64,000 bases of DNA from the NCBI GenBank assembly GCA_963823335.1, contig CAWGLD010000007.1:345409-409408 (forward strand). The letters are read 5' to 3'. Made by a program: the position numbers and the translations under genes. The notes below the pieces were generated by a model, which searched no databases, had not been told where the DNA came from, and was given only the letters and a program-made list of their open reading frames with translations. Shown in pieces: positions 11,998 to 14,164 of the stretch. The DNA is from an uncultured delta proteobacterium. GTDB taxonomy: Bacteria; Desulfobacterota; Desulfobacteria; Desulfobacterales; B30-G6. Within the stretch, counting starts at the first letter, position 1; each line of letters opens with the position of its first letter.

Positions 11998-12354
11998 ATG
12001 TTTATGGCTACTATGACGATCAAAAGACTTCACGAACTATTGGATAACAATGCCGACAAAGATGTGCTGGCATGGGCAGGGGCCTGCCACGATTGCAGGA
12101 CCGAGGCCCAGGTTACGGCGATACCAAAAGAAGACGGCATCCATATCAATGGGGGAAGCGTGTACGAACCCGCCGCCAACAAGTTCATGATCAAGTGTGA
12201 TGCCTGTTTTGAAAAAGATCCTGTTCTGAGGGATTATCAGGATTGTGAGGTCTACAGCAGGGTGGTAGGATACCTGCGGCCCGTTGCCCAGTGGAATGAT
12301 GCCAAGCAGGCGGAGTTCAAGGACAGGAAACTGTATGATCCAAGTATCTGCTAA
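11998..12354 (+). CDS. Small protein with Zn-ribbon-like CxxC pairs and NrdD C-terminal glycyl-radical-type motif
   Basis: CHDC...CDAC followed by CEVYSRVVGYLRPVAQWNDAKQAEFKDRK, resembling the class III RNR C-terminus. Confidence 0.8.
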   Translation: MFMATMTIKRLHELLDNNADKDVLAWAGACHDCRTEAQVTAIPKEDGIHINGGSVYEPAANKFMIKCDACFEKDPVLRDYQDCEVYSRVVGYLRPVAQWNDAKQAEFKDRKLYDPSIC

Positions 12355-12429
12355 CCATTAAAATCACAGATCGATTCTAATGGATGTCTTGAAAAAGCAT
12401 GATCCGCCAGAGGTGATATCACTGGCGGA

Positions 12430-12588
12430 TCAGTTGTTTTCGGCATCCTGTGGTTTAGCTTCCGGTGGTTTGCTTGCCACCTGGCAAGCATTGCGAGCTC
12501 AGGTGGATATACCGAGTTTTGGGAGGATATATACCTGAAGTAATATCCAGACACCTACAACGATGAACAATATAATGGCTTCTTTCAT
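12430..12588 (-). CDS. Probable small membrane selenoprotein, 52 aa (UGA = Sec at codon 30)
   Basis: GGAAAGGA RBS; MKEAIILFIVVGVWILLQVYILPKLGIST-UGA-ARNACQVASKPPEAKPQDAENN*; one TM helix; UxxxxC motif; perfect hairpin starting 9 nt after the UGA. Absent from the ORF track. Confidence 0.7.
12471..12490 (-). promoter_or_regulatory. Bacterial SECIS-like hairpin
   Basis: TGCTTGCC-AGGT-GGCAAGCA with the loop 16 nt after the UGA at 12501-12499 and G in the second loop position. Confidence 0.7.
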
Positions 12589-12682
12589 GGGGTTCCTTTC
12601 CTGGCGCCGTTCAGCACAGGATCGTTATTAATTTATAAACATCAATATGGGATCAAATTAAGCCCCGAGACAACAATTGTCA

Positions 12683-14164
12683 ATGAAATACAAAAGAAAA
12701 CAATTCCCGATACTTTTTAGCGCTCTTTTCGGTACGATTTTTCTGTCTCTTCTCTTCACCCGCATGGGAGTATTTGACAGTCAGCCGGGACGGACGGAAA
12801 TCGCCGACATATCGTCATCGGAAATCATTGCAGATCGGGATACCTGGATGAATATCTTCCAGGACAAGAAAAAGATCGGCTTTTCCCATTCACACTATGC
12901 GCGACTGGACCAGGGATATCGTTTCAACGAAACCCTGTTTATGAGAATCAACACCATGGGGATGGTTCAGGACATCGGTCTCAACACCAGCGGTCTCCTC
13001 AACACGGATTTTTCGCTCAAGTCCTTTGATTTTGAAATTGCCTCCGGGCGTTTCAATTTCTCTGCGGCCGGCAGCATAACCAACAAAACCCTTGCTTTGA
13101 ACACCCAAAGCGCCGGTGCAGAACAGACCTACAAGTTGAGCCTGACCGATGATATCTACTTCACTTCCGGTATTGTTCAGGCAGCCAGCGCCGGCAAGTT
13201 GAAACCGGGAGACCAGCTTGCTTTGAAGGTCTTCGACCCCATTGCCATGGGCCAGGAATCGATTCTGCTGCATGTCCTGGAAGAAGAAGCGATCACCATC
13301 ATGGGACAGGTGAAAAAAGCGACCAAGATTTCACTGAAATTCAAAGGTGCCACCCAATTGGCGTGGATGGATGAAAAAGGAGATCTTTTAAGGGAAAAGG
13401 GCATGCTGGGGATTATTCTCGAGAAAACATCCCGTGAAGACGCCATGCACGGCCTCCCCATCCAGTCAAGTCAGGATCTCACAGAAGCCGCATCAATTCC
13501 ATCCAACATCGATATCCACAATCCAGGTGAACTGATGCAAATGCGATTCGAGATAACCGGTTCAGGTGATTTCGCAGAACAGCTTCAGGGTGGCAGACAG
13601 ACCTATGATTCCCCGGTTCTCTCGATCCAAAAGGAGTCCCTCGACGACCTTGGGCAACAAGATCCTCCTCTGGTTCCCACGGAAAATATCACGGCCTTTC
13701 TGGCACCCAGCCCCTTTATTCAGTCAGATCATCCTGCCATACACAGACTGGTATCCGATCTGCTTACCGACAAGACTCCCCCGCTTGAAAAAGCGCGTAA
13801 ACTGGTTGACTGGATGCAGGCACATATTCAAAAACGCCCGGTCATTTCTCTCCCCGATGCCCTGTCCACCCTTGAAAACCGCGTGGGGGACTGCAATGAA
13901 CATGCGGTGCTCTTTGCAGCCCTGGCAAGAGCTGCCGGAATCCCCACCAGGCTCGAAGCCGGTGTGGTCTTTCTACGAAAACGTTTCTTTTATCATGCAT
14001 GGAACAGTATTTATGTCGGCAGATGGATCACTGTCGATGCGCTGTTTGACCAGATACCGGCCGATGTCACCCACATTCGTCTTGCCAGCGGTATGCAGAA
14101 AGACCAGCTCGACATATTAGGACTCATCGGAAATTTGAAAATCCAGATCCTGAACGGAATATGA
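12683..14164 (+). CDS. Transglutaminase-like domain protein with N-terminal TM anchor
   Basis: Catalytic-triad motifs GDCNEHA, YHAW and WITVD. Confidence 0.85.
   Translation: MKYKRKQFPILFSALFGTIFLSLLFTRMGVFDSQPGRTEIADISSSEIIADRDTWMNIFQDKKKIGFSHSHYARLDQGYRFNETLFMRINTMGMVQDIGLNTSGLLNTDFSLKSFDFEIASGRFNFSAAGSITNKTLALNTQSAGAEQTYKLSLTDDIYFTSGIVQAASAGKLKPGDQLALKVFDPIAMGQESILLHVLEEEAITIMGQVKKATKISLKFKGATQLAWMDEKGDLLREKGMLGIILEKTSREDAMHGLPIQSSQDLTEAASIPSNIDIHNPGELMQMRFEITGSGDFAEQLQGGRQTYDSPVLSIQKESLDDLGQQDPPLVPTENITAFLAPSPFIQSDHPAIHRLVSDLLTDKTPPLEKARKLVDWMQAHIQKRPVISLPDALSTLENRVGDCNEHAVLFAALARAAGIPTRLEAGVVFLRKRFFYHAWNSIYVGRWITVDALFDQIPADVTHIRLASGMQKDQLDILGLIGNLKIQILNGI

Follow-up and report, generated by a model that had tools for sequence, protein, structure and literature searches.

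A probable 52-residue membrane selenoprotein with a UxxxxC motif, from a widespread small-protein family of Desulfobacterota and Planctomycetota

In bacterial genes that are read by SelB, of which fdhF is the classic case, an in-frame UGA is followed by a conserved stem-loop, and SelB recognises the G and U in the apical loop, approximately 16 to 37 nt after the UGA. A review of May 2026 collects in its Table 1 119 prokaryotic selenoprotein families with their motifs and model accessions (PMC13188914), and that table holds no small membrane protein in which selenocysteine (Sec, U) and cysteine (Cys, C) are arranged as U-x4-C. Other hypothetical selenoprotein families appear in parts of the paper on deep-Sep (PMC12013277) and of that on the Olavius symbiont (PMC1976440), and the models of these families gave no match here. 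Full-text literature searches, which covered main texts, returned no description of such a protein. Here we describe a gene of this kind in a 64,000-nt stretch of DNA, referred to as the window, from an uncultured delta proteobacterium of the Desulfobacterales (Desulfobacterota; assembly GCA_963823335.1, contig CAWGLD010000007.1, positions 345,409 to 409,408 of the forward strand). Judging from sequence comparison, the minus-strand gene at 12430..12588 is almost certainly a genuine selenoprotein gene of a new and widespread small-protein family. We rate the family as new, and as belonging to the SelB-dependent type, with a selenocysteine insertion sequence (SECIS), that is already known.

The locus resembles the bacterial SelB-read genes in that a conserved stem-loop, whose apical loop holds G and U, comes after its UGA, that Cys homologues exist, and that SelA, SelB, SelD and tRNA-Sec are found in the genome. 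Among eukaryotic proteins, SELENOK and SELENOS are small single-pass membrane selenoproteins with the Sec at the far C terminus and the SECIS in the 3' untranslated region. Compared by description only, the peptide may share with them its general build, with one helix at the N terminus, one Sec and a cytoplasmic tail that is charged and disordered, but here the Sec lies 7 residues past the helix and a Cys follows five residues on. TsoA, the 'LULAXC motif selenoprotein' (NF045695), likewise has a Sec followed by a Cys a few residues later in a short motif; its model covers 144 positions, however, and its spacing is U-x3-C instead of U-x4-C. The TsoA model, at its 170-bit cut-off, did not match the peptide, and the best score in the genome was 11.8 bits (E 0.64), at another place. 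MerT has several helices, unlike the single-helix peptide, and the peptide is without a Pfam match at E up to 10. A likeness to the MerT-like selenoproteins, listed as 'putative mercuric transport protein' (PF02411) in the tabulated part of PMC13188914, lies in a Sec near a membrane helix as a possible soft-metal ligand. Most of the families tabulated in that review are far larger than the present protein, which also differs in its anchoring by a membrane helix.

The minus-strand ATG at 12588-12586 opens a frame of 52 codons with an in-frame TGA at codon 30 (12499..12501) and a second TGA (12432-12430) as the final stop. Codons 1-29 translate to MKEAIILFIVVGVWILLQVYILPKLGIST and the frame after the TGA to ARNACQVASKPPEAKPQDAENN, giving a 52-residue product, MKEAIILFIVVGVWILLQVYILPKLGIST-U-ARNACQVASKPPEAKPQDAENN, with U30 and C35 in a UxxxxC motif; the same build was seen in 50 homologues. 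The TGA, predicted to be read as selenocysteine, is kept in homologues and has Cys in its column elsewhere, and the TGC codon of Cys35 (12484..12486, minus strand), the likely resolving partner of U30, is invariant in two alignments (A1 and A3). A Shine-Dalgarno-like sequence, AGGAAAGGA, lies 5 nt before the ATG (12594..12602, minus strand), and GGAG or AGGA stands at the same place in homologues. Residues 2-24 (12517..12585, minus strand) form a hydrophobic membrane helix according to an AlphaFold2 model, the alignments and residue counts. Eight nucleotides past the UGA begins a SECIS-like hairpin, TGCTTGCC-AGGT-GGCAAGCA (12471..12490, minus strand), in which 12490-12483 pairs with 12478-12471 in an 8-bp stem and the loop AGGU occupies 12482-12479. 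An earlier note made from the sequence alone had reported a strong ribosome-binding site in front of a frame with an in-frame TGA, a perfect hairpin with an AGGT loop behind that TGA at the canonical SECIS distance, and a membrane helix ahead of the U/C pair; each of these is borne out, on the minus strand with the start at 12588, with the hairpin kept and covarying in homologues and with the AlphaFold2 helix over residues 2-24. The note had also foreseen that ordinary open reading frame (ORF) calling would miss the gene, and the translation table 11 listing indeed gives only a 29-aa stub at 12499..12588.

The conservation of the TGA was followed in a set of 61 genomes, the window's genome and 60 relatives, by a six-frame search with a cut-off of E below 1e-6. 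This gave 50 matches in 49 of the 61 genomes, each with exactly one in-frame TGA, which was codon 30 in 49 of the matches and codon 29 in the remaining one. The start codon was ATG in 49 and GTG in one, most had a GGAG or AGGA box upstream, total lengths ranged from 47 to 66 residues, and the final stops were TGA (29), TAA (16) and TAG (5). In an alignment of 46 of the 50 homologues L22, P23, G26, T29, U30 and C35 were invariant, with Q18 and Q36 nearly so. A profile search of 401 genomes sampled evenly across the phylum found matches in 176 of them, i.e. in 117 of 255 genera, and all 150 matches among those listed carried the TGA. When 60 phylum-wide matches were fetched, 55 showed the full motif together with the TGA, one of them in fusion with a thioredoxin. 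The family also reaches Planctomycetota, where 26 of 251 sampled genomes matched, 24 of these with TGA; in 20 Planctomycetota genes that were fetched the TGA was present in all, preceded by Thr in 18 and by Ser in two. One genome of the related set (G055) carries two tandem copies of the selenopeptide gene (L041 1501-1677 and 1726-1887, plus strand), both with TGA.

The sequence past the TGA bears the marks of a coding region. All 50 homologues keep the frame open for 17 codons or more (median 24), a length that 11 and 15 of the 50 reach in the two other frames. Across eight same-genus genes of equal length, the differences after the UGA numbered 47, 55 and 176 at codon positions 1, 2 and 3, and the ratio of synonymous to non-synonymous changes there was 113:117 in frame versus 29:188 and 16:180 in the other frames of the same genes. 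The tails vary in sequence and have a common make-up, with 18% Lys, 11% Asp, 10% Glu and nearly no Leu, Phe, Met or Tyr. Taken together, the open frame, the excess of third-position differences and the in-frame synonymous excess indicate, at the level of sequence, that the region downstream of the UGA is translated. The earlier note had held that conservation should be lost past the UGA if its reading was wrong; instead, conservation and the coding signature run on beyond it.

These results bear directly on the possibility that translation stops at the first UGA, in which case the product would be a hydrophobic peptide of 29 aa and the downstream conservation would belong to an RNA element such as an attenuator or a stability hairpin. 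Public gene calls yield exactly this 29-aa product, and UGA is an ordinary stop in the genome: of 44 long ORFs in the window it closes 22, and of the 50 genes of the family itself 29. Furthermore, some termination at selenoprotein UGA codons is expected when selenium is scarce. Against a stop at codon 30, the frame is open in 50 of 50 homologues, the tails vary yet keep their hydrophilic make-up, the third-position and synonymous excesses lie past the UGA, Cys35 is invariant, the Cys-form homologues run through as one ORF, and the terminator is found at the second stop and not at the first. We regard termination at the first UGA as very improbable.

The SECIS-like hairpin was analysed in 49 genes aligned without gaps; the fiftieth, L062, was left out for a 6-nt insertion. 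The 8-bp stem was paired in 90.1% of cells, as compared to 32-66% when the 3' partner was slid by 1-3 columns. Changes on both sides were seen in four of the eight stem pairs, with compensatory pairs at positions 21-34 (UA 24, CG 23) and 24-31 (UA 32, CG 12), and the covariation score was reached by none of 500 column shuffles. The stem changes swap Ala with Thr or Ser with Gly in the peptide, and through these swaps the bases stay matched to synonymous third positions in the codons of Ala34 and Cys35; selection thus acts on the RNA structure in addition to the protein. RNAalifold independently predicted a 5-bp core of the stem, and the apical loop was AGGU or AGUU across homologues. The Planctomycetota genes have, approximately 20 nt after the UGA, hairpins rich in GC whose sequence is unrelated and whose loops include GGA. 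Unbroken stems of at least 6 bp were present in 92 of 123 Sec forms versus six of 16 Cys forms. A scan of 12300-12700 against Rfam at E up to 10 gave chance-level matches only.

The machinery to decode UGA as selenocysteine is present in the genome of the window, with SelB at 373 bits, tRNA-Sec at 75 bits, SelA at 610 bits and SelD at 372 bits. The SelD gene (L143, G000:C5:144246-145172, minus strand) has an in-frame TGA (GAG-U-ASKLAPGD), and SelD is therefore itself a selenoprotein in this genome. Of the selenoprotein-rich genome that had been suggested in the earlier note, the part followed up comprises the Sec machinery, which is present, and the TGA in SelD. DsrA was also found, so that the organism is a sulfite or sulfate reducer. 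SelB was detected in 48 of the 49 gene-carrying relatives, the exception being G054, an assembly of 560 contigs, and in Planctomycetota it was found in five of five genomes tested with the Sec form and in three of five with the Cys form. SelB was, however, also present in 372 of the 401 phylum genomes and 58 of the 61 relatives, and families without the gene (f53, f61, f63 and f69) nevertheless have it. Its near-universal presence in the phylum thus makes SelB a weak test.

Additionally, we looked for forms in which Cys takes the place of U, a check that had been proposed together with the original observation. A pattern scan with Cys replacing U, run on one genome per species, located 16 loci with Cys aligned to the TGA, from seven other lineages. 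The metagenome-assembled genomes (MAGs) that carry them are named as Myxococcales, Deltaproteobacteria, Desulfobacteraceae, Planctomycetes, Leptospira, Acidobacteria, Bacteroidota, Chloroflexota and Cyanobacteriota. A HMMER search against 1.84 billion cluster representatives returned 2168 matches with E up to 1e-3, of which 136 had E up to 1e-10. Among the best 150 matches the motif read C..C in 108, W..C in 27 and G..C in two; the W..C and G..C entries are genes whose TGA was read under another code by a metagenome gene caller. Full-length but wrong entries of public protein sets include P0016, P0017, P0024, P0026, P0027 and P0043. A word-indexed search of 5.8 billion proteins retrieved only 13 stubs of 29-38 residues. 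Family records, where they have any name, are called 'hypothetical protein', and a natural Cys homologue (P0014) matched solely unnamed 'hypothetical protein' clusters in the ESM Atlas. With the Sec form read with Cys, no family of Pfam-A or NCBIfam 20.0 matched at E up to 10, and for seven Cys forms the same databases gave chance-level matches only. With the UGA, the downstream Cys and the hairpin conserved in homologues, the hidden small membrane-anchored selenoprotein with a UxxxxC motif that the sequence had first suggested is upheld.

In the AlphaFold2 model, built from alignment A3, residues 2-24 are helical and the remainder is unstructured; the mean predicted local distance difference test (pLDDT) score was 69.5 overall and 86-89 over residues 1-20. 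The helix carries a conserved W14 and a conserved Q18 (Q or N in relatives) and ends in the invariant L22-P23. Of 123 sequences, 119 have a Gln or Asn within the helix and 113 a Trp four residues ahead of that site, a pattern that hints at helix-helix contacts. In the 15 residues that follow the hydrophobic core, Lys and Arg outnumber those before it in 108 of 122 peptides, equal them in 14 and fall below them in none. By the positive-inside rule this excess places the N terminus outside and the C terminus inside, with the U-x4-C motif and the tail in the cytoplasm.

The same stretch might instead be a cleaved signal peptide, with the T-(U/C) position as a processing or lipidation site, and release a periplasmic peptide with an N-terminal Sec or Cys. 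A short N-region, a hydrophobic core and an invariant small residue before the Cys or Sec would suit such a peptide, and CcdA-thioredoxin or TlpA-like genes lie near three loci (L067, L091 and L112). The lipoprotein lipobox has the consensus [LVI][ASTVI][GAS]C, and this pattern after an uncharged hydrophobic core was not found. The residue at -1 to the U/C is Thr in alignments A1 and A3 and Ser in two variants, and Lys or Arg stands at -6 in 117 of 122 peptides; neither position fits the lipobox. Moreover, the charge bias puts the C-terminal side in the cytoplasm, and the thioredoxins that are fused to the peptide or overlap its gene are of the classical WCGPC type without signal peptide, as are the partners that combine metallo-beta-lactamase (MBL) and rhodanese domains in lacking one. 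A secreted and processed form is therefore given hardly any weight here.

Neighbouring genes were clustered for 120 loci, of which 104 carry the Sec form and 16 the Cys form. The gene for a sigma factor of the extracytoplasmic function (ECF) type was the immediate same-strand downstream neighbour in 19 of the 104 Sec loci, and also in L145 from Planctomycetota. Behind the ECF sigma gene, 14 loci have an RsrA-like zinc-binding anti-sigma (ZAS) factor, which is small and without a membrane segment of its own. A 4Fe-4S protein like HybA/HmcB is encoded near the gene in 16 loci, and an unclassified protein with four transmembrane segments (4-TM protein) immediately upstream of it in 11. These combine, in further families of the order, into a conserved operon of five parts, namely 4Fe-4S protein, 4-TM protein, selenopeptide, ECF sigma and ZAS anti-sigma, as in L046 (990-2495) and the similar loci L027, L035, L036, L039, L047, L048, L060, L064, L083 and L084. 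The 4Fe-4S protein of this operon has a C-terminal anchor, and the 4-TM protein is approximately 157 aa long, His-rich and of no Pfam or NCBIfam family; a single query found no match to it in the genome of the window. MobB, the molybdopterin-guanine dinucleotide biosynthesis adaptor, was encoded directly upstream on the same strand in 11 loci, with an overlap of 4 nt with the selenopeptide start in three. Loci with MobB upstream include L026, L029, L030, L031, L034, L049, L053 and L137, and MoaE adjoins the gene in L086; both point to genes for the molybdenum or tungsten cofactor.

Thioredoxin was a recurrent partner. In L120 (3501-4034, plus strand) no stop separates the selenopeptide from a classical WCGPC thioredoxin domain that continues it, and the two together make 178 aa, for which a sequencing error in the MAG is possible. 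In L108, from a genome of the same family as L120, trxA overlaps the selenopeptide stop codon by 4 nt. In L151 a thioredoxin gene adjoins the family's gene, and in L067 and L077 one is located in the vicinity. ArsR regulators adjoin it in L096, L109, L133 and L151, and one lies in the same operon, 2.7 kb upstream, in L077. Genes for hybrid-cluster protein and rubrerythrin are neighbours in L087 and L150. Cys forms from Planctomycetota and Chloroflexota are placed within sulfur operons (L069, L077, L079 and L081) together with ArsR, a YgaP-type rhodanese, thioredoxin, an MBL-rhodanese fusion, TauE and a pyridine-nucleotide-disulfide oxidoreductase. The operons of bigR/cst type, as covered in part of PMC5823870, contain an ArsR-type persulfide sensor, a sulfurtransferase-dioxygenase fusion and a TauE exporter, and the four Cys-form operons hold just these parts. 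They differ in that no small Cys-x4-Cys membrane peptide is among the operon products named in that part of the paper, and the window's own locus is without any of these genes.

Based on these partners, namely the recurrent thioredoxin with one fusion, the ECF sigma/ZAS pairs, ArsR and the sulfide-detoxification operons, we favour a role in redox or sulfur chemistry. On the comparative evidence, SelB with Sec-tRNA decodes the UGA at codon 30 as selenocysteine, guided by the hairpin 8 nt downstream, and translation ends at the second UGA, within the terminator. The N-terminal helix would anchor the peptide with its N terminus out and its C terminus in, so that the T-U-x4-C pair would sit a few residues from the cytoplasmic face of the membrane, followed by a disordered charged tail. 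The selenol/thiol couple may then form a selenenylsulfide or carry sulfane sulfur, and thioredoxin may recycle it. That the protein is a membrane-tethered Sec/Cys redox couple in the handling of thiol, persulfide or sulfide stress is plausible, and we give it somewhat less than an even chance. A more specific version, which we consider unlikely, would see in the peptide of roughly 50 residues a new class of minimal membrane-tethered selenol, whose Sec at the cytoplasmic face is the first acceptor of sulfane sulfur or of an oxidant signal from the membrane and passes it to thioredoxin and, in many lineages, without an intermediate to a soluble ZAS anti-sigma factor. The membrane sources would then be the quinone pool, sulfide:quinone oxidoreductase or polysulfide, and selenopeptide, anti-sigma and ECF sigma would make up a three-part switch.

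A real selenoprotein could alternatively bind a soft metal or metalloid, such as Hg, Cu(I), Cd or As(III), through Sec30, Cys35 and often Met31, with no redox or sulfur relay involved. ArsR-family regulators stand directly beside the gene in L096, L109, L133 and L151, MerR-family regulators directly upstream in L119 and L130, and a DUF364 'heavy-metal chelation' gene adjoins in L133; in addition, Met follows U in 81 of 122 peptides. C-x4-C is not, to our knowledge, a classical metal-binding spacing, and this we count against metal binding. Several known selenoprotein families handle metals, according to the part of PMC13188914 that deals with families. However, ArsR regulators of the BigR/SqrR kind sense persulfides, as described in a section of PMC5823870, and genes for sulfide oxidation that match this are present at the Cys-form loci. 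In the loci examined no metal pump or MerP/MerA-type gene recurs beside the gene, and the only fused domain is thioredoxin. Of the two functions put forward in the earlier note, redox and metal binding, gene context favours thiol/sulfur redox, and we see metal binding as an unlikely main function.

The sigma factor genes raise the further possibility that the peptide is a sensor or signal, in which the state of the Sec/Cys pair, or the efficiency of UGA recoding as a measure of selenium supply, controls the downstream ECF sigma/ZAS pair. This would agree with the ECF sigma gene lying immediately downstream on the same strand in the 19 Sec loci and L145, and with an RsrA-like anti-sigma factor that is small and has no membrane segment. 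On the other hand, no sigma gene follows in the window or in most loci, the gene of the window ends in a terminator, and a functional product is more in keeping than a leader peptide with the conserved membrane helix and the existence of Cys forms. We hold such a signalling function to be improbable, somewhat more so than metal binding.

Several observations weigh against our reading of a membrane selenoprotein with a redox role. Taken alone, in a 66-nt stretch, the hairpin is unexceptional (z -0.83), with 39 of 200 shuffles folding as well, and hairpin z-scores barely separate Sec forms (-1.4 to -1.75) from Cys forms (-1.24); the significance of the hairpin comes from its conservation and covariation and not from its energy. 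At least five carriers gave no SelB match (G075, G163, G182, G239 and G333, which are 85-94% complete), with G054 as a sixth. Five of the 60 fetched phylum-wide homologues have no Cys at +5 (L101, L117, L123, L131 and L135), and the U/C couple is therefore not the whole story. They keep T-U and an open frame after it, e.g. T-U-LVPNRQVA, and may form a subfamily that works with Sec alone. The neighbours in the window, a divergent transglutaminase-like gene and a convergent gene that resembles the C terminus of NrdD, are uninformative, and across the phylum most neighbours are unrelated housekeeping genes and the gene is usually free-standing. The links to thioredoxin and sulfur rest on approximately 10 of 138 loci, and the CcdA-thioredoxin genes near L067, L091 and L112 would also fit a periplasmic location. 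The RNA evidence is weak as well. Metatranscriptome contigs from four estuary runs, which are probably one sampling campaign, cover 12088-12639, and one of them spans 12121-12639, i.e. the whole gene and 51 nt upstream. They are identical to the window inside the coding sequence, with flanks that vary, but they give no strand, ends or level, and carry-over of DNA is possible, so that they amount to a weak hint of transcription. With these points included, the reading as worded, that is a real 52-residue membrane selenoprotein gene with a redox role put forward conditionally, is very likely in our judgement.

At the end of the gene lies a feature that had gone unmentioned in the earlier note, a second strong hairpin followed by a U-run, UGCUUUUUC (12391..12432, minus strand), which overlaps the final TGA and resembles a terminator. 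Its 11-bp stem (12432-12422 with 12410-12400) folds at -20.5 kcal/mol (z -4.6), a value reached by none of 200 shuffles. On the plus strand, too, the hairpin at 12432-12391 is trailed by a T-rich run, and it probably serves as a two-way terminator that is shared with the convergent gene at 11998-12354. A scan for promoters and terminators listed no minus-strand promoter and no terminator; this hairpin is absent from the simple scan because its 11-nt loop exceeds the length allowed. By eye, TTGACA at 12683-12678 and TAATTT at 12660-12655, separated by 17 nt, can be seen upstream on the minus strand, with the -10 element matching in only three of six positions. The convergent gene (11998-12354, plus strand) encodes a stand-alone protein of 118 aa that contains two CxxC pairs as well as the glycyl-radical motif known from the C terminus of anaerobic ribonucleotide reductase, and it matches only the last approximately 40 positions of the Pfam NRDD and NCBIfam NrdD models. 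It may be a 'spare-part' glycyl-radical domain. A 118-aa NrdD-like gene of this kind was convergent with the selenoprotein gene in 13 of the 120 loci.

Selenoprotein inventories have come mostly from Sec/Cys pairs in proteins that are long enough to be called, and here a widespread selenoprotein, present in 176 of 401 sampled genomes of a major phylum of anaerobes and also in Planctomycetota, was missed entirely because the stub before its UGA is only 29 residues long. Adding the family would fix thousands of gene calls that at present either stop at 29 aa or have Trp or Gly in place of the Sec. The bacterial selenoproteome would gain a member that is membrane-anchored and does not have the thioredoxin fold, and the Cys relatives (2168 cluster representatives) make up an unstudied small-protein family in sulfide-detoxification and thiol-stress operons.

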